From an uncultured Flavobacteriales bacterium (lineage in GTDB: Bacteria > Pseudomonadota > Alphaproteobacteria > UBA8366 > CAVOAK01), in assembly GCA_964419045.1 (NCBI GenBank), contig CAYQNO010000013.1, positions 3,808-67,807 on the forward strand: 64,000 bases of DNA. The letters are read 5' to 3'. Each line of letters begins with the position of its first letter. Within the stretch, counting starts at the first letter, position 1. A program made the translations under genes and the position numbers. The notes under the pieces were generated by a model. The model made no database searches and was not told the DNA's origin. It saw only the letters and a list, made by a program, of their open reading frames with translations. Positions 11,190 through 46,927 of this stretch are shown here, piece after piece.

Positions 11190-12362
11190 TTAATTCCCGT
11201 CCTGTAAAGAAAGCCTTTCCTGAGCAGCGTTCCCAATTGTCTCCCGTACAGATGGGAACCGCTCGAGAACGGTCTTGAAATCGTCGCTATCAAGAATAAG
11301 TAGCCTACACTCGGTTAACGCAATTGCTGTTGCGTTGCGAACAGTCGTGTGTAAAAGGCCGACCTCACCAAAGAAATTTCCCTGAGTAAGTATAATAGGT
11401 TCGGGATGTAATTCCATTTCGATTTCGCCGGATGCAATGAAGTACATACAATCCGCCTTCTCTCCCTTACGCGCGATCGTATAACGCGCAGGCACGACGA
11501 CTGCATCAAGCAGTCTTGCTATCTCGGCGATAGAGGTTGCATCCAAAGATGAAAAGGCTGGAACTTGTGCTACCATGTTCCAATTAACAACAAAATCTCG
11601 CTTACGCAGTTCAGCTGCAAAACTAGACGCAAATATCCCAGTCCACAGAACGAACAAAGCTATTCCAGTCAGCATCACAATGCCACCAAGGACTTTTCCC
11701 ATGACTGTTACCGGTGTCACATCGCCGTAGCCGACCGTCGTTAATGTAGCGATTGCCCACCACATTGCGTCCGGAATGCTGCCAAACTTCTCTGGTTGAA
11801 CAGCGTTTTCAACCAGAAATATTAGGCTAGATGCGGCAATCAACATGATCAGCATTACCAAAAACGCCGCAACAATAGACCTGCGTTCGTTTTTTATTAC
11901 CGCAACAAATGTTTGTAGAGCAGGTGAGTAACGCGTGAGTTTAAAAATTCTAATAAGCCTAAACATTCTAAGAAATCTGAGGTCAACGTTAACAAAAAAT
12001 GCCAAATAGAATGGTAGGATTGCGAGTAAATCTATCAAAGCATAGGGAGTGAAGGCGTATCTAAAGCGCGATTTCCAAGGTGTGGCTAAATTATCCGTCC
12101 GTTCTTCCACGCAAATCCACAAACGTACTAAATATTCGATGGTAAAAACGACTACTGAGAATATTTCAAAACCAAAAAAATATTGTCTGTACGCAATACG
12201 TAGTTCCGCAACAGTCTCCACGACTACTGCTGCTACATTTAAAATTATCAAGACGACAAGGAATATGTCGATTACGCGACCCATTCCCTCACTCCGGCCA
12301 ACGCCCTCAAACATCTGAAACGTACGATTTCGATATGTTTCCATGCGCCTGTCTCGAAACAA
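11190..12362 (-). CDS. Cyclic-nucleotide-gated potassium channel (6TM + cNMP-binding domain)
   Basis: S4 LRFLRMFRLIRIFKL, selectivity filter TTVGYGD, C-terminal CNBD with FFGEVGLL...RNAT. Confidence 0.9.
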   Translation of the reverse strand: MFRDRRMETYRNRTFQMFEGVGRSEGMGRVIDIFLVVLIILNVAAVVVETVAELRIAYRQYFFGFEIFSVVVFTIEYLVRLWICVEERTDNLATPWKSRFRYAFTPYALIDLLAILPFYLAFFVNVDLRFLRMFRLIRIFKLTRYSPALQTFVAVIKNERRSIVAAFLVMLIMLIAASSLIFLVENAVQPEKFGSIPDAMWWAIATLTTVGYGDVTPVTVMGKVLGGIVMLTGIALFVLWTGIFASSFAAELRKRDFVVNWNMVAQVPAFSSLDATSIAEIARLLDAVVVPARYTIARKGEKADCMYFIASGEIEMELHPEPIILTQGNFFGEVGLLHTTVRNATAIALTECRLLILDSDDFKTVLERFPSVRETIGNAAQERLSLQDGN

Positions 12363-33730: not shown

Positions 33731-34666
33731 ATGGATATACAAGGTTCAAAGAAGGTCATATATGCCGCTTTCGTGGGCAATCTTTTGATTGCAGTAACAA
33801 AACTGGCGGCAGCGGTATTCACCGGTAGTTCTGCCATGGTGAGTGAGGCTGTCCATTCGATCGTTGACACAGTCAACCAGCTTCTACTCTTATATGGCCT
33901 TCGCCGTGCACAGCGTCAACCAGATGAATCCCACCCGTACGGCTACGGTATGGAGCTATATTTCTGGACCTTCGTTGTTGCGATCCTCATCTTTGGGCTT
34001 GGTGCTGGCGTTTCATTTTATGAAGGGATACAGAAACTACTAAAGCCGCATCCAATCTCAAACCCAGCCGTGAATTATATTGTACTAGCTGTAGCCATGA
34101 TTTTTGAAGCAGCAGCCTGGACCATCGCCTTTCGGGAGTTCCGCAGAGTGAAAGGCTCTGACGGATACATAGCTGCAGTTCGGCGAAGTAAAGACCCGGC
34201 CGTGTTTACGGTGTTGTTTGAGGACAGTGCAGCCATGGCGGGTCTTGTGATCGCGTTTGCTGGAATCCTAGCAGGCCAACTCCTCAACATGCCTATCATG
34301 GACGGAATAGCAGCTATCTGTATCGGTGTTATCTTAGCCATTGTTGGTGCGCTACTAGCCTACGAAGCAAAGGGCCTGCTCATAGGAGAAGCGGCTAAAC
34401 CATCAGTTGTGCGGAATATCAGAAAAATTGTCGAGAATGAATCTGGGATTTTAAATCTAAATGAAATGCTCACAATGCATTTTGGTCCCAAGGACGTCCT
34501 GCTCAACCTTAGTATTGATTTTGCAGATAACCTAAGTTCCCGAGATGTGGAGGAGTCAATTTCTCACATGGAACAGCAAATCAAAGAAAAACATCCTGAA
34601 GTAACCCGTGTATTTATTGAAGCACAAGGTAAACGCGCCAGTGATACTGCTAAAACCAACCACTAA
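33731..34666 (+). CDS. Cation diffusion facilitator (ZnT9/FieF-like)
   Basis: SEAVHSIVD, HPYGYG.E.YFW, FEDSAA, DG, C-terminal metallochaperone-like domain. Confidence 0.9.
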   Translation: MDIQGSKKVIYAAFVGNLLIAVTKLAAAVFTGSSAMVSEAVHSIVDTVNQLLLLYGLRRAQRQPDESHPYGYGMELYFWTFVVAILIFGLGAGVSFYEGIQKLLKPHPISNPAVNYIVLAVAMIFEAAAWTIAFREFRRVKGSDGYIAAVRRSKDPAVFTVLFEDSAAMAGLVIAFAGILAGQLLNMPIMDGIAAICIGVILAIVGALLAYEAKGLLIGEAAKPSVVRNIRKIVENESGILNLNEMLTMHFGPKDVLLNLSIDFADNLSSRDVEESISHMEQQIKEKHPEVTRVFIEAQGKRASDTAKTNH

Positions 34667-34930: not shown

Positions 34931-36919
34931 TTGATGGAATATTCGGTGGTTAGAAAAAATTTTATGCATAAGAAAATCGAATTCATTTGTCGCCAATTAG
35001 GTGGCAGTCTTCTAGTAATTATTTTTGGACTTGTTGGCCTGGTAGCAATTACTACGGCCGACGTTCGCGCTTTTGAACTGCAAAATGGAGTATTGTTTTC
35101 CGGATTGCAGCTGGCAAATACTGCGGCAACCACAGATGATGACGAGCTTATCGATGATGATGACCTTATCAGTGACGAAGACGAGGACGAGGAAGCAGAC
35201 GAAGAGGAGGAGTTGGAAGAAGATAATGTGGTAAAGGATGGGTCGGAAGCTCATGAAGCATTGTTTGCCGAAAGTCGCTATCCATCAGCTGGAACCTGCG
35301 GCACTTGCCATCCTAAACATTATCGCGAATGGCGCGTATCTCAACACTCATATTCACAATTAAGTCCTATCTATCTCTCGCTTAATAACAAAATAAACGA
35401 ACTTGCAAACGGTTCAAATGGGGACTTTTGTCTTCGCTGTCATAATCAGGTCGGTGCCAATTTGGGTGAAGACTCATTCGTATCAAATTTAGAACGCCAC
35501 CCAACGTCACGTGAAGGTATTACATGTGTTGTCTGCCACCGTATTAATAAAAGTTACAACAAGGCAAGCGGGCGCCTAGCCTTAGTCGAGGGCGGACTCA
35601 CAGAGCCCATCTTTGGACCTAAGGGGAACGAGGAACTAGCTCGAGTACTCGAAAATACCCACAAATATAGAGTGGTTACAGAGCCCGACGAATCGGGCCG
35701 TCAAATTCATAAGGAGGTAACCCAGTTTACCAATATTTCCCAACCTACATTTTGTGGGACTTGTCATGATGTAACTTTGTTTAACGGTTTCCGGCTGGAA
35801 GAAGCATTTAGTGAATACCGAATGTCACCTGCTGCAAAGCGGGGTGTAACCTGCCAAGACTGTCACATGGGCAAAGTACAGGGTAAGGTTTCTGGATATG
35901 AATTTGGACCAGCAGCCGTCGTAGGTGGTATAGAGACAGAGCCGCGAAAGATTACGGATCACTTTTTCGGAGGGCCCGACTATTCGATCATCCATCCTGG
36001 CATTTTTCCCCATAGTTCAGAAGCGCAACAGATGGCCAGCTTGGGAGAGTGGTTGCAATTCGACGTTGAAGCCGGGTGGGGAACCGACGCGTTCGAAGAC
36101 AATGTTGCGGACGATGCAAGTTTTCCCGAGCGTTGGCAGGCAATAGACGACAGATATGATGCACGTGAAATAATTAACGAACAACTAGAACTCTTGGCGT
36201 GGGCTACGGAGAAACGCCTAGAAGTTTTGCGTAACGGCTATCTTATGACTGACATTGTGACTGAGAAGGCTGATTCTGGAGGCATCAGATTTAAAGTGAA
36301 AGTTGAGAGTGCAACAGACGGCCACAACATACCAACTGGATTTACAGGCGAACGCCTGGTTTGGCTTGATGTGACCGTAACTGACCAAAACGGGACTGTA
36401 ATCATGAGGTCGGGTGACCGAGATCCAAATGGTGACCTTCGTGACGGACATTCAGCGTATGTACATGCTGGGGAAATTGATCTTGATCCTCAACTGTTCA
36501 GTCTCCAGTCTATATTTGTAACGCAGAATGGTCGTGGCGGTGAGATTGAACATGTAATCCCAATTCCTTATCCAGTCATCTCGCTGCCGCGTGTTTTACC
36601 TTCAGTGGCTTCACTGGTCTTTACCGGTGAGCCTGCCACGGAACGTAACCATAAAAAAGGGATAGAGCCACTAGGTCATCGTTGGGCTAAGTATAAAATC
36701 GATGGCAAGAATTTAACTGGAAAGGGACCTTACCGGGCGGTGATTAAGCTAATCCAACAACCGGTACCTATCAACTTGCTTGTGGCAATGCAAAGCGTTG
36801 GCTTTGATTACGGGCTTACTCCCCGCCAGGCAGGTGACGCGGTAATTGCAGGGGCGCAGGTCTTGTGGGAAAAAGAAATTGTATTTGAAGTGGATCAATT
36901 GGCTGAAGCTGCCAAATGA
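34931..36919 (+). CDS. Exported pentaheme c-type cytochrome (c554-like heme core, acidic N-terminal tract, large heme-free C-terminal domain)
   Basis: Five CxxCH: CGTCH, CLRCH, CVVCH, CGTCH, CQDCH; signal peptide ending VRA; HNIPTG motif. Real start may be ATG 34964. Confidence 0.9.
   Translation: MMEYSVVRKNFMHKKIEFICRQLGGSLLVIIFGLVGLVAITTADVRAFELQNGVLFSGLQLANTAATTDDDELIDDDDLISDEDEDEEADEEEELEEDNVVKDGSEAHEALFAESRYPSAGTCGTCHPKHYREWRVSQHSYSQLSPIYLSLNNKINELANGSNGDFCLRCHNQVGANLGEDSFVSNLERHPTSREGITCVVCHRINKSYNKASGRLALVEGGLTEPIFGPKGNEELARVLENTHKYRVVTEPDESGRQIHKEVTQFTNISQPTFCGTCHDVTLFNGFRLEEAFSEYRMSPAAKRGVTCQDCHMGKVQGKVSGYEFGPAAVVGGIETEPRKITDHFFGGPDYSIIHPGIFPHSSEAQQMASLGEWLQFDVEAGWGTDAFEDNVADDASFPERWQAIDDRYDAREIINEQLELLAWATEKRLEVLRNGYLMTDIVTEKADSGGIRFKVKVESATDGHNIPTGFTGERLVWLDVTVTDQNGTVIMRSGDRDPNGDLRDGHSAYVHAGEIDLDPQLFSLQSIFVTQNGRGGEIEHVIPIPYPVISLPRVLPSVASLVFTGEPATERNHKKGIEPLGHRWAKYKIDGKNLTGKGPYRAVIKLIQQPVPINLLVAMQSVGFDYGLTPRQAGDAVIAGAQVLWEKEIVFEVDQLAEAAK
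35135..35224 (+). repeat. Low-complexity Asp/Glu tract (23 of 30 residues acidic)
   Basis: DDDELIDDDDLISDEDEDEEADEEEELEED, encoded by GAT/GAC/GAA/GAG-rich DNA. Confidence 0.9.
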
Positions 36920-36999
36920 TCTTCCTACTAATGTAATTCCACCTTAATCAGACTAGTAGTTAGGACAGGTTATTGAATAAATCAGGGGAGAGTCGCTGT

Positions 37000-38487
37000 A
37001 TGAACACTTCCTTGCGGGATAAGGCCAAATTGCGTGCCCACTCCGCTGCAGTAATATATTCTTTTATGGTTTTCTCCCTGTTTGTGAGTAGCTCTCATGC
37101 CAATGCAGGTAGTGAAAGTAAATGGTATGATTTTTTCTGGCCGCTTGGTGCACCAGTTCACGTTGAAGCCCTCAAGGAAGAATACGTACCATATAAATCA
37201 ACCGGAGAAATACCGTTTCGACCGGGTCTTCTAATAGAATTGGGCGATCCATTTCTTGATACTGGACAACTGGATCCAGGTTTTGAAGTCCCTTTGATCG
37301 AAGCTGTATGGCAACCTCGATTGTGGTCATATTTTATTCATCGCACGACATTACAGACTTTCGACAATGGCGCCGACGGTAGGGATCGAGATACGGAGTG
37401 GGCAAACCGTCTCGATTTTTTTGCAAATTTACAACTAACCGGAACTGAAAAAATTCTCCTTGGTCTTCGTCCAGTGGATAATAATCAACCCGGAAGGTTC
37501 TCCCGAATTGCATTCGATAGTTCGGATAATGGGTTTAAAAATGAGCTTAATTTGGACGTAGAGACTCTATTCTTCGAAGGTGATATAGGAAGTCTCCTCC
37601 CGGTACTCGACCGTGCTGGCATCAAGCCAATAGATTTCGGATTTACTGTTGGTCGACAGCCTTTTACTTTCCAGGAAGGTATCATTATCAACGATACCGT
37701 CGATGCGATTGGTTTTGTTAGGAATAACATCCCCTTTCCTGGAACTTCTAATCTTCGAATTTCAGGTTTGTGGGGTTGGCACCGACTTGACCGGAATGAC
37801 AGAGCTCGCAGCTCTGACGCCAACATGTACGCGCTCTTTACGGCTGTAGATGCGCCCGTTAGCACGTTCAATCTTGATTTAATCTATGTAGATGACAACG
37901 CTAACGACGGTAGTGGTGACGGTTTCTATGTGGGTGCATCCGCCATTCAGCGTATCCGGGCACTGGGTGGGATGAGCACTGCGTTTCGCATTAATAGCTC
38001 TATTGCCCTTGATGATGAGATTGGAGGAAATGTCATTGGTAATGGGACACTGTTAACAGCGGAATTCTCAAAGACACCGCACGGGTCAGATGACATTGCA
38101 TACGTTAACCCATTTCTTAGCATTGGTAACTTCACCCAGGCAGGCCGCGAGCCCATTCTTGGTGGCCCATTAGCTAATACCGGCATACTGTTTGCATCAC
38201 CAAATCTTAGTACCCACGGCGCCGAAATAAACCCATTTACCGACGACGTTTATGGTCTGGCCACCGGCTACCAAGCATTTTGGGATAATAAGAGACGAAA
38301 TCTTATTTTAGAACTAGCGGCTCGTCGTGACTACAGTGGGAATGGGTTTGATTCTTATGGAGCAGGATTCCAGCTGCAACAGGCAGTCGGACAACACTAC
38401 CAGTTACAGTTAGAGGGATTTCATACAATCCAGACAACACGCCAAGATGCCACTGGTGCCCGAGCCGAAATTTTAATTGTATTTTGA
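37000..38487 (+). CDS. Putative outer-membrane beta-barrel (porin-like) protein
   Basis: Signal peptide (SHA cleavage), many amphipathic alternating strands, C-terminal ARAEILIVF ending in Phe (BAM signal), no CxxCH. ATG 37000 has RBS AGGGGAG. Confidence 0.75.
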   Translation: MNTSLRDKAKLRAHSAAVIYSFMVFSLFVSSSHANAGSESKWYDFFWPLGAPVHVEALKEEYVPYKSTGEIPFRPGLLIELGDPFLDTGQLDPGFEVPLIEAVWQPRLWSYFIHRTTLQTFDNGADGRDRDTEWANRLDFFANLQLTGTEKILLGLRPVDNNQPGRFSRIAFDSSDNGFKNELNLDVETLFFEGDIGSLLPVLDRAGIKPIDFGFTVGRQPFTFQEGIIINDTVDAIGFVRNNIPFPGTSNLRISGLWGWHRLDRNDRARSSDANMYALFTAVDAPVSTFNLDLIYVDDNANDGSGDGFYVGASAIQRIRALGGMSTAFRINSSIALDDEIGGNVIGNGTLLTAEFSKTPHGSDDIAYVNPFLSIGNFTQAGREPILGGPLANTGILFASPNLSTHGAEINPFTDDVYGLATGYQAFWDNKRRNLILELAARRDYSGNGFDSYGAGFQLQQAVGQHYQLQLEGFHTIQTTRQDATGARAEILIVF

Positions 38488-38590
38488 TTTGGTATTAACC
38501 TGGATAATGATCCATCCGATCAACCAAATTTGTATAATGCAAACACAAGTGTCCTGCCGCCAAACAAGGTACCTTTAGGTAATAGAGACC

Positions 38591-39877
38591 ATGATGGAGG
38601 CAAATTTCATTTCCACAGCCTTTCAATTTGCCGGTATCATGATTATCGGCGTCGTCTTGATTCAAGTTGTCCTGATGCTTATTTCGTCATTCCGTCATTT
38701 TTCACGTGAGGACGAACGGGAGAAATTAGGGCTCAATACGTTGCGTTACCGGACCGAAGCCCTCCTAGTTCGTAGCAATACTGAGCGGGAACGCGTGGAG
38801 CTTTCCTGGAACGGTTTTCGTAAATTCGAAATACAAAGTATCGTTTCCGAGGCAAAGGACATTAATTCATACTACCTGGTGCCACACGATGGAAAACCTC
38901 TGCCCCCATTTTTGCCAGGCCAATACCTAACATTCCAATTAAAGATTCCAGATTTAGCAAAGCCCCTTATTCGATGTTATTCGCTATCAGACAGTCCAAA
39001 TCACTCGGATCGCTACAGAGTCTCCATAAAAAAAATTCTGTCACCACGTAACGAACCCGATGCCCCACCTGGTCGCTCATCTTCATACTTCCATGAGAGT
39101 CTGAACGTCGGCGATATTCTCGATGTCAAGGCGCCGAGTGGTCATTTTTATCTACAAACTGCAAAAGATAATTCTATCGTGCTAATAGGAGGTGGGATCG
39201 GTATCACGCCTGTACTCAGCATGTTGAACGCGCTTTGCGAATCAGAATCCAAGCGAGAAGTTTGGTTTTTTCTGGGCCTACGAAACGGTTCTGAACACCC
39301 CATGAAGGATCATCTAACGGAGTTAGCTAATGTTCACGAAAATCTCCAATTGAATATTTGCTATAGTAATCCCGAGGAACATGACGTTAAAGGACACGAC
39401 TACCAGCATGCGGAACGAGTCAGTGTTGACTTGTTCAAACGATTACTACCTTCTAATAACTATACATTTTATATCTGTGGACCTCCCCCGATGATGGAAA
39501 TGGTGACTGAGGATTTAAAGTTATGGGGGGTGCCTGAGGATGAAATTCACTTCGAGGCATTTGGCGCAGCGACGGTCAAGCGGACGAAAGTGGTCACAGC
39601 AGAACCCAAGGAAGGAGCGGTTGTTCCGCATATCGTATTTTCTCGGTCAGGAGCTACACTTCCATGGGATGGAAGTGCCGAATCGCTGCTTGACTTTGCA
39701 GAGCGTAACGGAATTGATATCGATTCTGGCTGCAGAGCGGGCAATTGTGGTACTTGCATCACGGCCATAAAATCGGGCGAAATAGAGTATAGTATCGAGC
39801 CTGGAGCTCCACCCGAAGATGGGTCATGTCTGACTTGTATTTCAATACCAAAATCTAATCTAACGTTGGACGCATGA
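38591..39877 (+). CDS. Membrane-anchored FAD/NAD(P)H-binding oxidoreductase with C-terminal [2Fe-2S] ferredoxin (FNR/PDR-type)
   Basis: N-terminal TM (FAGIMIIGVVLIQVVLMLI), RCYSLS, GRSSSY, GGGIGITP, YICGP, FEAFG, CRAGNCGTC...C. Confidence 0.9.
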   Translation: MMEANFISTAFQFAGIMIIGVVLIQVVLMLISSFRHFSREDEREKLGLNTLRYRTEALLVRSNTERERVELSWNGFRKFEIQSIVSEAKDINSYYLVPHDGKPLPPFLPGQYLTFQLKIPDLAKPLIRCYSLSDSPNHSDRYRVSIKKILSPRNEPDAPPGRSSSYFHESLNVGDILDVKAPSGHFYLQTAKDNSIVLIGGGIGITPVLSMLNALCESESKREVWFFLGLRNGSEHPMKDHLTELANVHENLQLNICYSNPEEHDVKGHDYQHAERVSVDLFKRLLPSNNYTFYICGPPPMMEMVTEDLKLWGVPEDEIHFEAFGAATVKRTKVVTAEPKEGAVVPHIVFSRSGATLPWDGSAESLLDFAERNGIDIDSGCRAGNCGTCITAIKSGEIEYSIEPGAPPEDGSCLTCISIPKSNLTLDA

Positions 39878-39983
39878 GTTTACCAAATATCGCCCCGAAG
39901 AAGATGATTTAAACGGATATAATTATTAAGGGGTTAGGCTGTTATTAATACCATAATTACTAGACACGGTAGACCTACGGAGA

Positions 39984-41033
39984 TTGACCGCTATGATAAA
40001 ATTTAATCTGCCAGTCCCAGTTGGCTGCCTCTCAATGATGGCGGCCCTAGCTTTCGGACTCGTTGTTGGGATTTCGGTTTTCCAAGGACAAGTAAATGCC
40101 CAAGAATATCGACTTGATCCGAAAGCAGTTGTGGGGCCTGATGCATGCGGCGAATGCCATAAATCTTCCGTAACAACTTGGAAATTAACGCATCACTCAA
40201 CAACATTTAAGAGCCTACCAAGAAGCAAAAAGGCGAAGGAAATAGCTAACAAACTTGGACTCAAGAGAATCAAGGCAGAAAGCGACTGTTTGACATGCCA
40301 CTTCACAACAGCAGTAAAAAAAGGCAAGGAGGCACCCATTGCCGGCATTACCTGTGAATCGTGTCACGGCGCAGGAAAAGACTGGATAAAATTACACAGT
40401 GATTACGGCGGTAAGGGTGCGACAAAGGATTCAGAATCTGCAGCGCACAAAGCAGAACGTTACGCAAATTCTGAAGCTGCGGGTATGATCAGGCCTTCCC
40501 TTCTCTACGATGTTGCAGCCAATTGTTATGGTTGCCACACAGTGCCAAATGAGGAACTTGTCAACAAGGGTGGGCATCCAGCTGGAAGCAAGTTTGAACT
40601 CGTTGCTTGGACGCAGGGTGAAGTACGCCACAACGTTTGGTATAGCAAAGAAAATAACGAAGCTTCGACTAATCGCAGACGGATGATGTATATCGTAGGT
40701 AAAGCCCTTGATCTTGAATTTGCACTCCGTGGCGTAGGTAAGGCGACAGCAAACAAAACCTATGCAAAATCTATGGCACGGCGGGCAAAATTGGCACGTA
40801 AGGCTATACAAACTATCGCTGCCGTAATTAAAACGCCTGAACTAAATTCGATCGTTATAGCGGCCAGTGAGGCAAAACTGAAGCTCAACAACGACGCTGC
40901 CTTATCGGCCGCGGCTGACAAAATAGCCGCCGCAGCCCGGAAATTTGCAAAAAATTACGATGGTAGCCAATTTATTGGTATCGATGACATGTTACCCGCT
41001 GCCAATAAATATAAGGGTAAAATAGCGCCGTAG
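39984..41033 (+). CDS. Exported tetraheme cytochrome c (c554-like), Lys-rich
   Basis: CGECH, CLTCH, CESCH (GITCESCHG), CYGCH; signal peptide ending VNA. Confidence 0.9.
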   Translation: MTAMIKFNLPVPVGCLSMMAALAFGLVVGISVFQGQVNAQEYRLDPKAVVGPDACGECHKSSVTTWKLTHHSTTFKSLPRSKKAKEIANKLGLKRIKAESDCLTCHFTTAVKKGKEAPIAGITCESCHGAGKDWIKLHSDYGGKGATKDSESAAHKAERYANSEAAGMIRPSLLYDVAANCYGCHTVPNEELVNKGGHPAGSKFELVAWTQGEVRHNVWYSKENNEASTNRRRMMYIVGKALDLEFALRGVGKATANKTYAKSMARRAKLARKAIQTIAAVIKTPELNSIVIAASEAKLKLNNDAALSAAADKIAAAARKFAKNYDGSQFIGIDDMLPAANKYKGKIAP

Positions 41034-41067
41034 TAATAAAATTGCTAGAAACCCAGGGGTACGATAT

Positions 41068-42819
41068 ATGGCAAAATCGGTGCTGATCCAGCAGTCTCGG
41101 CGTTGGGACAATCCATTCAGCGCGGATATGACCGAAGCCGATGTAGATCGAATTTTAGATATCGAGTTATTTCGCAACATGGATGCCGAAAAGTTTCCGG
41201 CATCTGCGTCATTACGAGATATCATACGAAATGACATGTGCATCCGCGAATATCGTAGTGGTGATATTATTATCCGTGAAGATGATTACGATACTTCGGC
41301 ATTCATCGTAATGTCAGGCAGTGTGCGTGCAGTATTGCCGCCAGGGCTAGCCAATGAAGTACTTGGTAGGGCTGATATGCCAAGGAAAGGACTCTGGGAA
41401 GCATTTAAGCAGATCTGGACTAATCCCGAATTTCCGGAGGTTCGTGACCCTTCTCGTTATACTAACGCTCGCGGTACTGGTACACGACAAATCGATTCAG
41501 AAGAAATACATATTTTTCTCCAGAACGTGCCGGATATTTTAGAGAAAAATCGTACCGTACAATTTGGGCCTGGCGAAATGTTCGGTGAAATCGCTGCCCT
41601 TGCTCGTGAGGCGCGGACTGCGACTATCTTTGCTGATGAAGATTCAGTACTCGTCGAAGTTAGACGTCAGGGAATACTCAATATACGACGCCGCGCAGTC
41701 GAGTTTCGCCAATACGTGGATCAGTTATATCGGGAACGTACACTTACAACTCACTTGCAAGAAACGCCAATATTCAACCATCTCAGAGCGGAAATAATTG
41801 AGATGATTGCGGAGAAAACATTATTTGATACTTTTGGGGATTTCTCCTGGTACATAAACTATAAGAAAATGATCGAAGACAGCAGTAGTGAAAGGCTGGC
41901 TCAGGAACCAATTATAGTAGAAGAAGGGCATTACCCTGATGGCCTCTTGATGATCCGAAGCGGATTTGCACGCGTAAGCCGCCGGCTAAACCATGGTCAA
42001 CAGACCGTGCGCTATATTGGTCGCGGTACAGTCTTCGGCTTTGATGAAATTGTGCGGCAATGGCAGAGTGGTAGTAAAGACTCAGAAGGCTATCGCTACT
42101 CCCTACGCTCTGTGGGCTATACTGACGTCCTAAGAGTCCCAACATCGATTATCGAAGAATACGTACTACCCACCATGCCGGAAGATATTCTAACTGCTCA
42201 TTTGGAAACTGAGTTAAATACATACGTAGAAACCAATAAGGATACGTACGAGGAAAACCCGGACGGTGATGATCCTGTAATAGGGACGTCCAAACTCGAA
42301 TTTATCGTTGAGAACCGTTATATTAATGGTACTGCTACGATGCTAATAGATCTTGACCGGTGTGTTCGGTGTGATTCTTGTGTCGAAGCTTGCGCTACTG
42401 GTCATAACAACAATCCGCGATTTCTCAGGCATGGAAGGACTTTCGATCACTTCATGGTGGCTAACGCTTGCATGCACTGTACTGATCCTGTCTGCATGAT
42501 TGGATGTCCAACTGGCGCAATCCACCGTAATGCATTAGGGGGGCAAGTTGTCATAAATGATGATACCTGTATTGGCTGTGCATCATGCGCAAATAATTGC
42601 CCATACGATAATATTAGAATGGTGGAAATTCGAGATTCAAATGGTGAATTTATTCGTGATGAAGCTACCAATTCAACAATCTTAAAAGCCTCTAAATGTG
42701 ATCTTTGTGCTGATCAGCCAGGCGGTCCAGCATGCCAGCGCGCTTGCCCACACGATGCGTTATACCGAGTAAATATGGGCGAGCTGCCATCCATCACTGC
42801 ATTACTGAGCCGACAATGA
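41068..42819 (+). CDS. Cytoplasmic protein with two cNMP-binding domains fused to a DmsB/NrfC-like 4x[4Fe-4S] domain
   Basis: CNBD1 FGEIAALAREARTAT; degenerate CNBD2 (GTVFGFDE); Cys motifs CVRCDSCVEAC, CMHCTDPVCMIGCP, CIGCASCANNCP, KCDLC...PACQRACP; no signal peptide. Confidence 0.9.
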   Translation: MAKSVLIQQSRRWDNPFSADMTEADVDRILDIELFRNMDAEKFPASASLRDIIRNDMCIREYRSGDIIIREDDYDTSAFIVMSGSVRAVLPPGLANEVLGRADMPRKGLWEAFKQIWTNPEFPEVRDPSRYTNARGTGTRQIDSEEIHIFLQNVPDILEKNRTVQFGPGEMFGEIAALAREARTATIFADEDSVLVEVRRQGILNIRRRAVEFRQYVDQLYRERTLTTHLQETPIFNHLRAEIIEMIAEKTLFDTFGDFSWYINYKKMIEDSSSERLAQEPIIVEEGHYPDGLLMIRSGFARVSRRLNHGQQTVRYIGRGTVFGFDEIVRQWQSGSKDSEGYRYSLRSVGYTDVLRVPTSIIEEYVLPTMPEDILTAHLETELNTYVETNKDTYEENPDGDDPVIGTSKLEFIVENRYINGTATMLIDLDRCVRCDSCVEACATGHNNNPRFLRHGRTFDHFMVANACMHCTDPVCMIGCPTGAIHRNALGGQVVINDDTCIGCASCANNCPYDNIRMVEIRDSNGEFIRDEATNSTILKASKCDLCADQPGGPACQRACPHDALYRVNMGELPSITALLSRQ

Positions 42820-43637
42820 ATTTGGCGACCCGTCGCCGACGAAATTTGTTGATTACACTAGCAATTGCGATCGGCTTATATTGTGTACACTGGATTTACA
42901 ACGCAGCTCTTTACAATGCCGCATTCCTCTCAGGATGGGCGCTATTCATCTCGATTCTGTTTCTTACTCTCTACAATTTGCGTAAAAAAATTACTATGCT
43001 ACCAATCGGTTCGAATGCAGCGTGGCTGCAACTACATATCTATCTTGGTTGGCTCGTAATATTTTTATTTGTCCTCCATATTGGATGGCGCGTCCCCGAT
43101 GGGTTAATCGAAGTTACTCTAGCTATCTTGTTCATAGTCGTCGCAGGAACCGGAGTCTTAGGCATTTTACTATCTCGTACCCTACCTAAACGCCTCACTC
43201 GACGAGGCGAAGAAATTATTGTCGAGCGTACGCCAATCTTTCTTGCCAGATTGCGGGAAGAAGCAGAACAGATTGTCATCATTTCGGCCTCAGAAACTGG
43301 CTCAAACACAATTCGTGACTTTTATGCGGAACATCTACATTTCTATTTTAGAAAACCGAGAAATTTTTTGCTACACTTGATCTCCTCAAATCGAGGAGTG
43401 TTCAAATTACAATCTGAATTCAATAATACTGACCGCTACCTCAATGCAGCAGAGCGTGAGCTTTTTGGTAAATTACGCACTCTTGTAGTAAAAAAGGACG
43501 ACATAGATTTTCAATACGCGCTCCAAACCATGCTCAAAGCTTGGCTTTTGATACATATTCCTGTCACCTATGCCCTTATACTGTTGGCAGTGCTACATCT
43601 AGTCATCGTTCACGCATATAGCAGCGGACTTGGATGA
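42816..43637 (+). CDS. Inner-membrane ferric-reductase-like (diheme b) transmembrane protein
   Basis: About 5 TM; His pairs H74-x13-H88 (TM3) and H247-x13-H261 (TM5); ATGA overlaps with both neighbours. ATG 42816 preferred over 42732. Confidence 0.75.
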   Translation: MNLATRRRRNLLITLAIAIGLYCVHWIYNAALYNAAFLSGWALFISILFLTLYNLRKKITMLPIGSNAAWLQLHIYLGWLVIFLFVLHIGWRVPDGLIEVTLAILFIVVAGTGVLGILLSRTLPKRLTRRGEEIIVERTPIFLARLREEAEQIVIISASETGSNTIRDFYAEHLHFYFRKPRNFLLHLISSNRGVFKLQSEFNNTDRYLNAAERELFGKLRTLVVKKDDIDFQYALQTMLKAWLLIHIPVTYALILLAVLHLVIVHAYSSGLG

Positions 43638-45862
43638 CAAACCCACTGCAGCATTTCGATTTCAGGAAAAGTACCTATCAGCGCCCTAATCAGACTTGGG
43701 TCTGTGGCAGAATGGTGGACGGAAACCCCTGTCAGATTGGTCCTGATATCAAGGGGAACTGTCAAGCTCACCACGAATGCCAGCCCAGCAGAAATAAAGA
43801 TAGGTGGCAATGTAATCGATCTGAATCTTCAGGTGGCAAATGCGATGAAGGCCCTATGCCGGACGGCACATGCTGCAGAGCCATCCCACGTTGTCAACCA
43901 ATCAGAAGCTGGCGTGGCCGTATACGTTCTATTAGAAATTGGGTATTCATAGCATCTGTAGGTTTACTTCTTACAGCTCTTAGTAGTCCCTTTACTTCAA
44001 ATTTTTTAAATCCCGGAAATGTTACCTTTCAACATGGTGAAATAGCTGACTGTACCGTGTGCCACTCAGCGCACAATAAGAGCGTATTGAGCTGGCCGCT
44101 GGCAGTTTTTACTCAGTCTACTAAAGATAAGGACAATGAGCTTTGTATTGCTTGTCACGATCTAGGAAAGAATCCTTCTGATCCGCACGGACTACCATCT
44201 GATACTCTCAGCGCTCTCACAAAAACAGCAGACACCAACAACGTCACCGGACAACCACTTCTACTGACCGCAGCATCCTGGGCCAGAGATCTTCCTCTCC
44301 ACGATGATACTGGTATTGCATGTTCAACATGTCACCAAGAACATAACGGTAAAGCATTTGAATTGACGGCAATGTCTAACAAACAGTGCGTAGCGTGCCA
44401 CGTAGTACATTTTTCAGCGTTGTCACGTGGCCACCCAGAATTCACTAATTTTCCGTTTGATCGCCGTACGCGAATTAACTTTGATCACGGGAGTCATCTG
44501 GGAACACATTTTCAAACAACAGAATTCAAGGAACATGCGCCACAGCAATGCACTACATGCCATGTGCCTGAAGACACTGGTCGTAATATGGTGGTCAAAG
44601 AATTCGAAACAATGTGTACTGCCTGTCACGGTGCGCAGATTGTTGGTTTTGGGAGAGCTACCTCGAAGGGGCATAAGATATTTTCTGTACCAGGGCTTGA
44701 CGTTACTGCTCTTGAAGAACGCAACGTACCTATCGGTCAATGGCCTGAAGACGCTGAAGGTGGAATAACGCCCTACATGGACATCCTACTCGCTATGGAT
44801 CAAGAATATAGAATCGCAAAATTGAATCTCCAAGGGCTGGACCTCCTTGACCTCGAGAATGCGAGCGATGAGGAAATTGCGAATATTGAACGCTTAGCTT
44901 GGAGTATAAAGGAATTGTATTTCGATCTTGCAACTAAGGGCATTGCAGCTCTTCAATCACGATTCGAGAATGCTTTGGGCTACGAGTTAGGATCCGACGA
45001 ATTAGCACGACTGACGAACCTGTTACCGATGGATGGAATCATGGCAGCTAAAAACCTTTGGTTCCCCAGTCTATTGGATGAAGTCAGGCGACATCGTGAT
45101 GGTGAAATAGTTGCTATTCAAAATATTAGTCAGATAGATAGTTTTGGTTCTTTATCCAACGTTGTTAAAGGCTCAAGTAAAAATGGTCAGAATATAGGTC
45201 TGAGCGATGATGAAATAGGAGATGATGAAATAGGAGATGATGATATTGAAGAAGAGGAAGTTGGAGACGATGAAGATACAAATATAAAATCAGTCATAAA
45301 CGAAGATTGGGCAAGCGCGGGGGGCTGGTATCGAGAGGGTTTTAGTCTGCGCTATCGACCTTCAGGACATGCAGACACCTTCATTAGGAGTTGGCTTGAT
45401 ATATCGGGGCAAGCAACAACAAATTTGAGCAAAGATTCAACAGTTGAAATATTCGAAAATCTGTCAAATGCTAAATCACCCGGCATATGTTCAAAATGCC
45501 ATAGCGTAGATGTTATTGGAACTGGCCTGTACAAGGTGAATTGGGAGAGTAAACGGCGAATTCCAAACCAGCAGACGTTTACAGCGTTTTCACATGTTAG
45601 TCACTTCACACTTTTGGACGAGCGTGGCTGCCTAACCTGTCATAGCCTAAATCTGGAGGCTGAGTTTGCTGATGGTTACAAGAACTCCGACCCAATGACA
45701 TTCTCAAGTAACTTCAATCCCGTTGAGCGGACCACCTGCGCAGCATGTCATACCGCAGCAGAAGCTGGAGACAATTGCGTAACCTGCCATAACTATCATA
45801 TTGGTATATTTCCACCTGCACAGACTAACACACACAAAATGATGAAACAGGCCCAGAACTAA
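43634..45862 (+). CDS. Membrane-anchored decaheme cytochrome c with duplicated Cys-rich N-terminal module
   Basis: Ten CxxCH (CTVCH, CIACH, CSTCH, CVACH, CTTCH, CTACH; then CSKCH, CLTCH, CAACH, CVTCH) in a 6+4 arrangement; TM near residues 103-121 preceded by an Arg-rich segment. Confidence 0.9.
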   Translation: MTNPLQHFDFRKSTYQRPNQTWVCGRMVDGNPCQIGPDIKGNCQAHHECQPSRNKDRWQCNRSESSGGKCDEGPMPDGTCCRAIPRCQPIRSWRGRIRSIRNWVFIASVGLLLTALSSPFTSNFLNPGNVTFQHGEIADCTVCHSAHNKSVLSWPLAVFTQSTKDKDNELCIACHDLGKNPSDPHGLPSDTLSALTKTADTNNVTGQPLLLTAASWARDLPLHDDTGIACSTCHQEHNGKAFELTAMSNKQCVACHVVHFSALSRGHPEFTNFPFDRRTRINFDHGSHLGTHFQTTEFKEHAPQQCTTCHVPEDTGRNMVVKEFETMCTACHGAQIVGFGRATSKGHKIFSVPGLDVTALEERNVPIGQWPEDAEGGITPYMDILLAMDQEYRIAKLNLQGLDLLDLENASDEEIANIERLAWSIKELYFDLATKGIAALQSRFENALGYELGSDELARLTNLLPMDGIMAAKNLWFPSLLDEVRRHRDGEIVAIQNISQIDSFGSLSNVVKGSSKNGQNIGLSDDEIGDDEIGDDDIEEEEVGDDEDTNIKSVINEDWASAGGWYREGFSLRYRPSGHADTFIRSWLDISGQATTNLSKDSTVEIFENLSNAKSPGICSKCHSVDVIGTGLYKVNWESKRRIPNQQTFTAFSHVSHFTLLDERGCLTCHSLNLEAEFADGYKNSDPMTFSSNFNPVERTTCAACHTAAEAGDNCVTCHNYHIGIFPPAQTNTHKMMKQAQN
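45206..45277 (+). repeat. 15-bp tandem repeat (GATGATGAAATAGGA x2 plus a degenerate third copy) encoding an acidic linker
   Basis: Protein DDEIG-DDEIG-DDDIEEEEVGDDED between heme 6 and heme 7. Confidence 0.9.
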
Positions 45863-45898: not shown

Positions 45899-46390
45899 TT
45901 ACTTACCAATTTTACCCTCTTTTTTACCCCAAGTTTCTAGGCGAACCGGTTCATCCGGATTACGACGAAATATGATGGGCGCTCGACGTTTTGCTATACG
46001 CCATCCCTCGGAGGTGCGTTCCAGCGCCGCATAACAGTCGACCAAACGATGTGGGCCCTCAAATGGTAACGGCCCATCTACCTTCTCAAATTCTGCGTCA
46101 GCTGTGTAATAAAGCGTATGATATTCGTTTAATTCTGCATGGTCCTCATCAATAACGTTAACAACAGTATTCGATAACACATGACGAATAGTTCCTTCGC
46201 CAAGGGCCGCCTGGAGTCCTTTCAATAATTCTTCACGACCATTTAGTTTCACACCATGAGACAGCCAATCGATGTCTTCAGTAAACAGGTTTGCTGCACT
46301 CTCGAAATCTCTATGATCCACGTAGTCGTAGTACTGACGCATGGTTTTTTCGCAATCCCACTCAATTGCACGTTCCTGCTCACGTTTCAT
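45899..46390 (-). CDS. SnoaL/NTF2-like family protein (paralogue 1)
   Basis: YYDYVD.RDF....LFT.D, RHVLSN, GWRIAKR. Confidence 0.85.
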   Translation of the reverse strand: MKREQERAIEWDCEKTMRQYYDYVDHRDFESAANLFTEDIDWLSHGVKLNGREELLKGLQAALGEGTIRHVLSNTVVNVIDEDHAELNEYHTLYYTADAEFEKVDGPLPFEGPHRLVDCYAALERTSEGWRIAKRRAPIIFRRNPDEPVRLETWGKKEGKIGK

Positions 46391-46435: not shown

Positions 46436-46927
46436 TTATTCTGATGTTCTACCTTCACTTTTACCCCATGTCTCAAGCCTCACCGGTTCTTCTGGATCAC
46501 GTCGGAATACAAGCAATGAGCGCCGCTTGGAAATACGCCATCCATCTGGCGTACGTGTGAGCTCAGCATAACTGTCGAGAAGCCTGTGAGGGCCCTCCAT
46601 TGCCAATGGATCATCAGCTTCTTGGTATTCTGCATCCGCAGTGTAATAAAGGGTATTGTAAGAACGACAAATAGCGTGATCCTTATCTGAAACAGTTACT
46701 ACTGAATTGGTCAGGATATGACGGACTGTTCCTTCACCTAGTGATGCGTAAAGGCCCTTCAGGAGTTCATCGCGACCATCGAGTTTTACTCCGTGCGAAA
46801 GCCAGTCGACATCTTTAGTAAAAAGATCTACCGCTTTTTCAAATTCACGCCTATCTACATAATAATAGTAACGACGCATAATTTTCTGACATTCCCACTC
46901 GATGGCGCGTTCCTGTTCCCGATCCAT
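46436..46927 (-). CDS. SnoaL/NTF2-like family protein (paralogue 2)
   Basis: Same length (163 aa) and ungapped alignment with the neighbour; roughly two-thirds identical by eye. Confidence 0.85.
   Translation of the reverse strand: MDREQERAIEWECQKIMRRYYYYVDRREFEKAVDLFTKDVDWLSHGVKLDGRDELLKGLYASLGEGTVRHILTNSVVTVSDKDHAICRSYNTLYYTADAEYQEADDPLAMEGPHRLLDSYAELTRTPDGWRISKRRSLLVFRRDPEEPVRLETWGKSEGRTSE

Follow-up and report, generated by a model that had tools for sequence, protein, structure and literature searches.

The window examined here (the whole stretch of 64,000 nucleotides that was analysed) contains a cluster of seven genes on the plus strand, arranged as follows:

34931-36919 (+): ptdA, exported pentaheme cytochrome c whose C-terminal domain is free of heme
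36973-38487 (+): ptdB, putative outer-membrane porin, with no Pfam match
38591-39877 (+): ptdC, TM-anchored FNR-like reductase (FAD, NAD(P), [2Fe-2S])
39984-41033 (+): ptdD, exported tetraheme cytochrome c, c554-like
41068-42819 (+): ptdE, ORF of 583 aa for a cytoplasmic protein with tandem CNB domains, a linker and a predicted four-[4Fe-4S] ferredoxin domain
42816-42819 (+): ATGA overlap of the ptdE stop and the ptdF start, translational coupling
42816-43637 (+): ptdF, membrane protein of 5 TM helices with the W-x3-H-x13-H motif twice and a helical insert on the cytoplasmic side, putative di-heme b
43634-45862 (+): ptdG, decaheme cytochrome c (10 CxxCH) with one TM helix, its gene in ATGA overlap with ptdF

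The ptdE gene belongs to a published family and is not new as an object. The cluster is the "PCC4 subgroup II" of He et al. 2017 (PMC5566968), where PtdE is the Fe-S (pfam13247) gene, and the ptdABCDEFG cluster of the preprint of Elbon et al. 2024 (10.1101/2023.11.21.568154), from which the name PtdE comes. It has in common with these the gene order, the 5, 4 and 10 hemes of PtdA, PtdD and PtdG, the protein called a porin in both papers, the FNR-like reductase, the cNMP_binding plus Fer4_11 (pfam13247) architecture of the Fe-S protein with homology over its full length, the 5-TM protein with two Hx13H motifs and the marine hosts, with no essential difference, and the same order occurs in relatives. 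Ptd/PCC4 is highly transcribed in ocean oxygen-deficient zones (10.1101/2023.11.21.568154); both papers leave the function of the cluster unknown, and in the literature we found no functional study of PtdE, PCC4 or any family member. He et al. make no mention of a CNBD in the Fe-S protein (PMC5566968), cNMP gating is proposed in neither paper, and what is new here relative to both is the predicted number of four clusters, the tandem CNB, the linkage to cyclases and the treatment of gene fusions as real.

There were more than 3300 full-length homologues of PtdE, those listed having 100% coverage and 52–80% identity, and relatives were found in at least 588 species genomes. Among 80 genomes compared, with 47–79% identity to PtdE, the E-F-G gene order was found in 76 loci from at least 8 phyla, the four misses being contig ends, and ptdC was present in 69. 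A locus with fused PtdEF (L085) and another locus (L027) had no PtdC nearby, and the electron donor may therefore differ in these two. The window itself matched only marine DNA metagenomes, with no RNA run among the metagenome matches to give transcript evidence for its organism.

The initial annotation had placed a cNMP-type sensor and a four-cluster Fe-S protein in a single ORF, and Pfam and NCBIfam searches bore this out at exactly 41068-42819 (+), with the following parts:

41245-41346 (+): CNBD1 (CNB-A), N-terminal beta-barrel half, aa 60-93, PF00027 profile positions 2-37
41347-41556 (+): insertion within CNBD1 of ~70 aa (aa 94-163), between the two Pfam stretches
41557-41691 (+): CNBD1, C-terminal half holding the phosphate-binding cassette, aa 164-208, PF00027 positions 43-87
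41581-41628 (+): canonical phosphate-binding cassette of CNBD1, from F172-G-E to R183-T-A-T-I187
41896-42159 (+): CNBD2 (CNB-B), aa 277-364, PF00027 positions 4-84, 35.6 bits
42178-42282 (+): linker from sensor head to Fe-S domain, aa 371-405, unconserved and of low model confidence
42340-42792 (+): HydN/HycB-type four-cluster ferredoxin domain, aa 425-575 (phmmer vs PDB, Fer4_11)
42361-42393 (+): Cys group I, CVRCDSCVEAC
42469-42507 (+): Cys group II, CMHCTDPVCMIGC(P)
42568-42600 (+): Cys group III, CIGCASCANNC(P)
42697-42747 (+): Cys group IV, CDLCADQPGGPACQRAC(P)

Membership in the cNMP_binding family is clear (PF00027, 85.8 bits against a gathering cut-off of 27.5; E 2e-24 over three stretches), Fer4_11 and other Fer4 models matched as well, and NCBIfam gave AegA-N, DmsB, HydN and HybA-like matches at aa ~425-575. 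In an AF2 model (pTM 0.74) the tandem CNB fold had its best Foldseek matches in the CNB-A/B domains of PKA-R and PKG (E 1e-16 to 1e-13 over ~360 columns), with trypanosome PKA-R among the matches, and the linker had pLDDT below 50 at aa 382-404 and block conservation of 0.1–0.4. A hydrophobicity scan of the whole protein found no signal peptide or TM helix (maximum KD19 1.26). A Tat signal at the N-terminal "SRRWD" was considered and rejected because no hydrophobic h-region follows it, and no TM segment was found. These data support a cytoplasmic cNMP-type sensor joined to a four-cluster Fe-S relay.

CNBD1 is split into two parts (aa 60-93 and aa 164-208) around the insertion, which is itself partly conserved, with L99, G100, W117 and E124 invariant in alignment A1. 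Its cassette, FGEIAALAREARTAT, has the Gly-Glu and the Arg-[ST]-Ala of cyclic-nucleotide cassettes (FGE...RTAT), and the earlier claim that it is intact with Gly-Glu and Arg-Thr holds, with G173, E174, R180 and R183 all present in every one of the 120 homologues (120/120) that share 52% identity or more. In an alignment (mafft --auto) of 116 distant representatives, G173 was kept in 114, E174 in 97, R180 in 107 and R183 in 100, i.e. G173, E174 and R183 were each retained in 84–98%. The first domain is thus like that of the tandem CNB-A/B of the PKA regulatory subunit and PKG in its canonical F-G-E...R-T-A cassette; unlike these, PtdE has no kinase partner, inhibitor sequence or dimerisation/docking domain, its CNB-A carries the ~70-aa insertion, and its CNB-B has a cassette ~13 aa longer with no Glu at G+1. 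CNBD2 is indeed non-canonical, as the initial annotation had it, with FGFDE, the longer cassette, and G324, E327, H/N/W at 330-332 and R347, retaining only the Gly and the Arg of the cassette pattern. The accompanying statement that it has no conserved Arg was wrong: R347, which in the model lies at the start of beta-7, the usual place of the cassette Arg, was found in 120/120 close homologues and 79/116 distant representatives.

An alternative explanation could be that the CNB tandem works without ligand as a structural module, a pseudo-receptor serving for example as a docking platform for the PtdC [2Fe-2S] domain, with the relay constitutive. The non-canonical CNBD2 is consistent with this, as is the absence of E174 or R183 from ~15% of distant relatives, from which it follows that ligand may not be needed everywhere, and CNBD folds have been reused elsewhere for other ligands or none, as in CooA, FNR, CprK and trypanosome PKA-R. 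This explanation appears unlikely, however, as the complete retention of G-E...R in close homologues is hard to account for without a phosphate-ribose ligand, and as genes for cyclases are enriched beside the cluster. In a search of 50 PtdE-bearing genomes, a PF00211 class-III cyclase gene was found in 19 ptd loci compared with 1.94 expected, an enrichment inflated by shared ancestry in that the Verrucomicrobiia block is one event and ~6 independent lineages remain. The cyclase gene adjoins ptdA directly upstream and co-oriented in SAR324 and Gemmatimonadota, and in two cases the linked cyclase was the sole cyclase of the assembly. Most ptd loci, including that in the window, have no adjacent cyclase; PF00211 was present in 49 of the 50 genomes, and the host genome (2.28 Mb) encodes 8 PF00211 cyclases and a CNBD K+ channel. 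One cyclase match, in locus L027, was a false positive, an aminotransferase. The adjacent cyclases give indirect support to a real cNMP input to PtdE. As to which nucleotide this may be, the Thr after the cassette Arg had been taken initially as a hint of cGMP, but this hint is weak because Thr184 is not conserved in the wider family (44/116 distant representatives) and because the readable linked cyclases look adenylyl, with the Lys plus Thr/Ser signature and none with Glu/Cys. We accordingly dropped cGMP specificity as a feature of the family; judged from these residues, cAMP would be the more likely of the two as the putative ligand of CNB-A.

The C-terminal domain has 16 Cys in four CxxCx(2-8)Cx3C groups (aa 432-442, 468-480, 501-511 and 544-560), all invariant in alignment A1 and each kept in at least 112/116 distant representatives, in agreement with the four groups noted initially. 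These support four predicted [4Fe-4S] sites in PtdE, as opposed to the "two 4Fe-4S clusters" stated by Elbon et al. (10.1101/2023.11.21.568154), and the corrected number matters for distance and redox models of the Ptd conduit. The assignment of the domain to a DmsB/NrfC/HybA type could not be upheld. In phmmer searches of the PDB it aligned along its entire length with HycB3 of HDCR, a four-cluster protein (7qv7_A, E 8e-17), with other matches to 6cz7_B and 7z0s_B, and its nearest relatives are cytoplasmic HydN/HycB relays. PtdE resembles these polyferredoxins (HycB3 7qv7_A, FHL HycB 7z0s_B, the AegA N-terminal domain) in four aligned Cys groups, in being cytoplasmic and lacking a Tat signal, and as an electron relay between modules, although they have no sensor domains and work with formate dehydrogenase or hydrogenase, in contrast to PtdE, whose partner is a small putative di-heme membrane protein. 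The DmsB/NrfC/PsrB/ArrB/NarH beta subunits share the Fer4_11 four-cluster fold, but all of these except NarH are exported with a catalytic subunit bearing a Tat signal and sit on NrfD/DmsC-type quinol anchors, which are absent from the PtdE cluster: PtdE lacks the Tat motif plus h-region of the periplasmic subclass, and Pfam and NCBIfam searches of the ptd cluster found no molybdopterin, NiFe or NrfD gene and thus no catalytic partner.

The partner gene ptdF has its true start at an internal Met at 42816, and not at 42732, which produces the ATGA overlap at 42816-42819. The overlap behind the translational coupling to this downstream gene that was claimed at the outset was confirmed and extends beyond the window: the overlap is 4 nt in 40 of 76 related loci and 1–19 nt in 16 more, and natural PtdE-PtdF fusion proteins recur as two independent types, each on two contigs. 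A single-gene PtdE-PtdF annotation has also been noted for Oceanospirillum beijerinckii (PMC5566968). These observations support a physical tie between PtdE and the membrane protein PtdF. The description of PtdF as a heme-b protein was too firm. Its two Hx13H motifs (H74/H88 and H247/H261) were invariant in 35 orthologues and provide two bis-His heme motifs on two TM helices, as in PF01794, and if the Arg-rich N-terminus is placed on the inside, the two His pairs fall close to opposite faces of the membrane. The hemes are thus predicted from the His motifs, the fold search having been empty: despite a model pLDDT of 90.9, Foldseek against the PDB gave a best E of 0.9. Both He et al. (PMC5566968) and Elbon et al. 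(10.1101/2023.11.21.568154) call PtdF ferric-reductase-like. Ferric_reduct matched only 2/35 PtdF orthologues (E of at least 0.046), DUF4405 was at cut-off in PtdF and matched 16/35, a profile search of PDB sequences gave no hit, those of NOX, FRD and cytochrome b structures included, and neither sequence nor fold showed significant similarity to FRD, NOX, STEAP or MsrQ; a NOX/FRD relationship of PtdF was thus unconfirmed.

It is possible that the CNB head does bind a cNMP but, rather than gating electrons, governs how PtdE assembles, how stable it is, its oligomeric state or which partner it takes, for example by ligand-controlled recruitment of PtdE to PtdF or PtdC. Cassette conservation and cyclase linkage would fit this equally, the flexible, unconserved linker suits tethering no less than gating, and the conserved CNBD1 insertion, with its invariant W117 and E124, could be a docking surface. 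The fusions tell against it, and we think it improbable, since they tether the Fe-S domain permanently to its membrane partner yet retain the full CNB tandem, which leaves no room, in the organisms concerned, for regulation by recruitment to PtdF.

The reading we prefer, to which we give close to an even chance (about 0.48), is that PtdE is a membrane-docked relay of the Ptd/PCC4 conduit whose connection is probably controlled by a cNMP-binding CNB head. Under this reading, NAD(P)H electrons would pass through the FAD and then the [2Fe-2S] of the TM-anchored reductase PtdC, from which the four [4Fe-4S] clusters of PtdE would most likely receive them; PtdE would hand them to PtdF, whose two putative b-hemes would take them across the inner membrane; there the decaheme PtdG would accept them, with PtdD and PtdA/PtdB next in line. 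A cyclic nucleotide bound at the canonical CNB-A cassette, acting via the flexible linker, would probably set whether the wire connects to its donor or acceptor, much like release of autoinhibition in PKA, PKG and Epac, or Ca2+/EF-hand control of NOX5. Such putative gating of electron flow through PtdE is plausible, and a fast post-translational gate would be sensible because electron export from NAD(P)H that bypasses quinone costs the cell reducing power and lowers its membrane potential. NOX5 has a regulatory domain fused to it that binds a second messenger, and Ptd would have in common with NOX5/DUOX and MsrQ-Fre the logic of cytoplasmic NAD(P)H to flavin to two bis-His b-hemes over the membrane. 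In contrast with these, PtdF has 5 TM helices and no significant Ferric_reduct or Foldseek match, the Ptd path runs over three separate proteins and includes a four-cluster Fe-S wire, and, compared with NOX5/DUOX, the acceptor would be a multiheme cytochrome and not O2. In Shewanella, cAMP-CRP controls anaerobic and extracellular respiration, transcriptionally and via the DNA-binding CRP. The proposed link from cAMP to electron export in Ptd would be similar, but PtdE lacks a DNA-binding domain, and its action would be on the electron path itself.

Flow could also be inward, with extracellular Fe(II)/Mn(II) oxidised and electrons passing to PtdF and on to quinone, or via PtdE and PtdC to an acceptor in the cytoplasm, with or without regulation by the CNB head. 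NarGHI, in which a cytoplasmic four-cluster subunit can receive electrons via two b-hemes, is a precedent for this direction. It is the metal-oxidation model of PCC4 put forward by He et al. 2017 (PMC5566968), and it is consistent with relatives of PtdE in Mariprofundus, Acidiferrobacter and Ferruginivarius and with those in Zetaproteobacteria and Hyphomicrobium found where Fe/Mn oxidation takes place (PMC5566968). We nonetheless consider it very unlikely and infer outward flow, in that the sole cytoplasmic end-point encoded is the FNR-like NAD(P)H module, reduction of NAD(P)+ (~-320 mV) from c-hemes against an inside-negative potential would be doubly uphill, and the majority of hosts belong to marine plankton, Verrucomicrobiota and Planctomycetota and are not known as metal oxidisers.

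A stronger form of the preferred reading, possible but somewhat doubtful, is that PtdE is the first second-messenger-gated Fe-S wire, in which cAMP or another cNMP, the product of sensory class-III cyclases whose genes often adjoin the cluster, would directly and post-translationally switch quinone-independent, NOX-like export of NAD(P)H electrons to multiheme cytochromes of the periplasm and outer membrane. In bacteria, the known cases of respiration under second-messenger control are mainly transcriptional. Direct action of a cyclic nucleotide on an Fe-S relay would, if true, be a new regulation of electron transport, spread over at least 588 species and more than 8 phyla, including many abundant marine and soil bacteria, and would give a functional handle on a widespread conduit. 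Hosts of ptd are in culture, among them Hwanghaeella grinnelliae, Ferruginivarius sediminum, Oceanospirillum beijerinckii and Ca. Uabimicrobium amorphum, and the gating hypothesis is therefore directly testable.

Some members of the family differ in architecture. Variants of 899 aa have a ~340-aa N-terminal extension that is low-complexity and helical, with no recognisable domain, and some members, in keeping with the preferred reading, carry FHA signalling domains in the same protein while retaining the C-D-E-F-G context.

PtdE is cytoplasmic and combines four cluster sites with a flexible linker and two CNB domains, CNB-A looking ligand-competent and CNB-B divergent. Patterns in its sequence, predicted fold, and genomic setting are consistent with an electron relay docked on a membrane partner, binding of a cyclic nucleotide, and gating of the relay by that ligand; we put this combined reading at a little under one in two. 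The open reading frame at 41068..42819 (+) encodes 583 aa, and the architecture first proposed, a cyclic-nucleotide sensor joined to a four-cluster Fe-S domain, is borne out by Pfam (cNMP_binding, E 2e-24, and several 4Fe-4S models including Fer4_11) and by NCBIfam matches over aa ~425-575 to the AegA N-terminal domain, DmsB, HydN, and HybA. The cNMP_binding matches form two domains, the first of them split.

Domains and cluster sites of PtdE
aa 60-93, N-terminal piece of CNBD1 (cNMP_binding profile positions 2-37)
aa 94-163 (window 41347-41556), insertion of ~70 aa within the beta-barrel of CNBD1
aa 164-208, C-terminal piece of CNBD1 (profile positions 43-87)
aa 277-364, CNBD2 (cNMP_binding match)
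aa 432-442, 468-480, 501-511, and 544-560, the four Cys groups

Four groups of the pattern CxxCx(2-8)Cx3C in the Fe-S part hold exactly 16 Cys, and one further residue, Cys58, is unrelated to them; all 16 were invariant in a 56-sequence alignment and each was present in at least 112 of 116 distant representatives. The last 166 aa align end-to-end, four Cys groups in register, with 7qv7_A (E 8e-17), the four-[4Fe-4S] HydN-type polyferredoxin HycB3 of the hydrogen-dependent CO2 reductase, and also with ArrB (6cz7_B) and HycB (7z0s_B). Since HycB3 is the closest end-to-end match and PtdE is cytoplasmic, having no hydrophobic segment (max KD19 1.26) and no signal peptide, the DmsB/NrfC/HybA-type label of the initial annotation has to be given up. 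An AlphaFold2 model built from the 56-sequence alignment (mean pLDDT 75, pTM 0.74) reached ~85-95 over the CNB region and less over the Fe-S domain, as expected because the model lacks clusters, while aa 382-404 fell below 50 and were also the least conserved stretch of the protein. Foldseek matched the model to the tandem CNB-A/B of PKA regulatory subunits and PKG in the PDB (E 1e-16 to 1e-13, ~360 columns), so that the head is predicted to be a PKA-R-like CNB tandem, flexibly tethered to the ferredoxin domain. In the CNBD1 insertion, L99, G100, W117, and E124 are invariant and a motif, LW-NP--PEVRD, is conserved; the insertion may be an interface element, and no known CNBD carrying one of this kind was identified.

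The cassette of CNBD1 is intact, as noted from the start, with G173, E174, R180, and R183 each present in 120/120 close homologues and in 114, 97, 107, and 100, respectively, of the 116 distant representatives. CNBD2 is non-canonical but not empty. Its cassette runs ~13 residues over the usual length and has no Glu at G+1, in keeping with its earlier description as degenerate, but the accompanying statement that it lacks a conserved Arg was wrong: R347, which the model places at the start of beta-7, the usual place of the cassette Arg, is present in 120/120 close and 79/116 distant sequences, together with G324 (120/120 and 113/116) and E327 (116/120 and 94/116). PtdE probably binds a cyclic nucleotide. 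The head could alternatively be a docking module that needs no ligand, with which the divergence of CNBD2 would agree better than the constancy of the CNBD1 cassette. Thr184, once taken as a hint of cGMP, occurs in 98/120 close relatives and 44/116 distant ones (Ser in 21), and Thr after the cassette Arg is not diagnostic, because HCN2 has R-x-x-R-T-A and yet prefers cAMP.

A real connection to cyclic nucleotides is supported at the level of genomes. Among 50 ptd loci screened by tblastn with subsequent Pfam confirmation, 19 contained genuine cyclase genes against 1.94 expected from the cyclase count and size of each genome (naive P ~1e-15), with the qualification that the 19 are not independent, 12 forming one Verrucomicrobiia synteny block and leaving ~6 separate lineages with chance probabilities of 0.005-0.11 each. 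PF00211 was present in 49/50 PtdE-bearing genomes vs 4/14 control genomes.

Cyclase-linked lineages
SAR324, 7TMR-DISM cyclase directly upstream of ptdA, co-oriented
Gemmatimonadota, Zn-ribbon-cyclase-AAA protein directly upstream, co-oriented, the sole cyclase of that assembly
Verrucomicrobiia, CHASE2 cyclase ~3 kb downstream of ptdG, conserved, in one case the sole cyclase of the assembly
Puniceicoccaceae, Planctomycetota, and Rhodospirillales, further cyclase-linked lineages

Read by eye against textbook class-III motifs, the cyclases of SAR324, Gemmatimonadota, and Rhodospirillales have the adenylyl-type Lys + Thr/Ser, the remaining linked cyclases are non-canonical, and none of those read has the guanylyl Glu/Cys pair; because of this distribution the ligand may lean, weakly, to cAMP, and the cGMP hint is not upheld. 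The host genome (2.28 Mb, 98% complete) encodes 8 class-III cyclase domains and a number of CNBD proteins, one of them an MloK1-type cyclic-nucleotide-gated K+ channel at window 11190-12362 (-) with Ion_trans, Ion_trans_2, and cNMP_binding matches. The channel and the number of cyclases in so small a genome point to heavy use of cNMP signalling by a small marine bacterium. Some family members carry two FHA domains ahead of the CNB tandem in an unchanged C-D-E-F-G context (loci L086 and L087, 7001-9565), and the variant P0215 likewise has FHA domains added to its CNB/Fe-S core. FHA domains are phosphothreonine readers, and their addition suggests a possible Ser/Thr-kinase input into the conduit, with PtdE as the point where signalling inputs would attach.

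The protein belongs to a cluster of seven genes.

Genes of the ptd cluster (window 34931-45862), in order
PtdA, pentaheme cytochrome (5 hemes)
PtdB, putative outer-membrane protein
PtdC, TM-anchored FNR-like reductase
PtdD, tetraheme cytochrome (4 hemes)
PtdE, CNB + Fe-S protein
PtdF, 5-TM membrane protein
PtdG, decaheme cytochrome (10 hemes)

PtdE, PtdF, and PtdG are consecutive and in the same order in 76/80 related loci, the other four being contig ends. PtdC is found in 69/80 and PtdD in 74/80, whereas PtdA (43/80) and PtdB (45/80) are often displaced or inverted and are missing from many Verrucomicrobiia loci, which makes the inner-membrane module C-(D)-E-F-G the conserved core. Twelve Verrucomicrobiia loci (L047, L050, L056-L061, L068, L075, L076, L080) keep only PtdC-E-F-G, with PtdA/PtdB not found within 10 kb and only a weak PtdD-like match, on the other strand; it would thus seem that the outer module can be exchanged or lost. 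The translational coupling of ptdE to ptdF noted at the outset (ATGA at 42816-42819) recurs as a 4-nt overlap in 40/76 loci and as one of 1-19 nt in 16 more; ptdF and ptdG overlap at 43634-43637. PtdE is also fused to full-length PtdF in two independent types, P0125 (843 aa; tail 40% identical to the window PtdF, E 1e-67) and P0148 (856 aa; 33%, E 3e-54), each found again as a non-identical sequence on a second contig. Linkage to PtdF, with its four conserved TM His, and to the decaheme cytochrome is thus genetically obligate and sometimes covalent, and that to the NAD(P)H-type reductase near-constant. Taken as Rosetta-stone evidence, the fusions and the single-gene annotation in O. beijerinckii seen by He et al. 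(PMC5566968) point strongly to docking of the Fe-S domain on the cytoplasmic N-terminus of PtdF. After the P0125 gene (L085, 8001-10532 of a 46.7-kb JGI contig) comes a PtdG-like cytochrome; neither PtdC nor PtdD is adjacent, and electrons may have another donor in this organism.

In PtdF, H74, H88, H247, and H261 are invariant within two W-x3-H-x13-H motifs, and TM4 carries S-G-x-x-G. The model (pLDDT 90.9) has a fifth, long helix in addition to four TM helices and a ~110-aa helical insert. If the Arg-rich N-terminus is placed inside, the first His of each motif (H74, H247) comes close to the cytoplasmic face and the second (H88, H261) close to the periplasmic face, the arrangement that two stacked b-hemes would require. 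No real link to NOX/FRD proteins came from Foldseek against the PDB (best E 0.9), from a profile search of PDB sequences, or from Pfam, whose matches among 35 orthologues were all marginal (DUF4405 16/35, Ni_hydr_CYTB 8/35, Ferric_reduct 2/35). The firm heme-b label is accordingly softened to a putative one, argued from His motifs.

In the path we infer, electrons would pass from NAD(P)H through PtdC (FAD, [2Fe-2S]), the four PtdE clusters, and two PtdF b-hemes to PtdG, and on to PtdD and PtdA/B. The metal-oxidation model for PCC4 would have them move inward, but outward flow is favored because the FNR-type module is the only cytoplasmic terminus and because electrons from c-hemes would have to climb in redox terms, and also against the membrane potential, to reduce NAD(P)+. 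The relay and docking role appears very likely. On binding to CNB-A, cNMP would rearrange the tandem, as in PKA-R/PKG, and switch the wire in or out. Electrons passing straight from NAD(P)H to the periplasm would skip the quinone pool at a cost in reducing power and membrane potential, so a fast gate would make sense, much like the Ca2+ control of NOX5. Alternatively, the ligand could set assembly or partner choice and not flow through an assembled wire, and the flexible tether would suit either; direct gating is a tentative hypothesis, and one directly testable in cultured hosts. PtdG has ~100 Cys-rich residues (window 43634-43950) ahead of its single TM helix (aa 103-122); if cytoplasmic, these would adjoin PtdE/PtdF, where they might coordinate metal or interact with the Fe-S domain.

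The cluster corresponds to PCC4 subgroup II (He et al. 2017, PMC5566968), with its porin, cytochromes of 4, 5, and 10 hemes, conserved inner-membrane protein (IMP) with two WX3HX13H motifs, and Fe-S cluster (pfam13247) gene upstream of the IMP gene, and also the ptdABCDEFG operon of Elbon et al. (bioRxiv 10.1101/2023.11.21.568154). The cyclic-nucleotide domain goes unmentioned in He et al. ('cyclic', 0 occurrences), literature searches found no functional work on PtdE/PCC4, and the published statement of two clusters should be corrected to four. PtdE belongs to a family that has been described but not characterised, known so far as annotation only, and cNMP-gated electron export is, to judge by the library searched, an unpublished hypothesis, now better supported. 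A word-indexed search gave >3300 full-length matches, the best 120 of identical architecture at 52-80% identity, named only 'cyclic nucleotide-binding domain-containing protein' or 'Fe-S-cluster-containing dehydrogenase component/CRP-like cAMP-binding protein'. At E <= 1e-30, exhaustive scanning of 50%-identity representatives with HMMER found 569 clusters, whose full-length members go down to ~32% identity. Relatives occur in at least 588 genomes (one per species), among them those of Alpha- and Gammaproteobacteria, Planctomycetota, Verrucomicrobiota, Nitrospinota, SAR324, Acidobacteriota, Gemmatimonadota, and Mariprofundus; Hwanghaeella grinnelliae, Ferruginivarius sediminum, and Ca. Uabimicrobium amorphum are among the hosts in culture.

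A gene for a CDF-family cation-efflux transporter (window 33731-34666, +) immediately precedes ptdA in the same orientation, a possible link to metal handling, and ptdG is followed directly, on the other strand, by two tandem SnoaL-like paralogues of 163 aa each (45899-46390 and 46436-46927, -). One contig labelled 'uncultured Flavobacteriales' (L005) has a ptd cluster with 75-86% protein identity to that of the window; it is probably mis-binned or mislabelled, since all remaining close relatives are Alphaproteobacteria-type MAGs.
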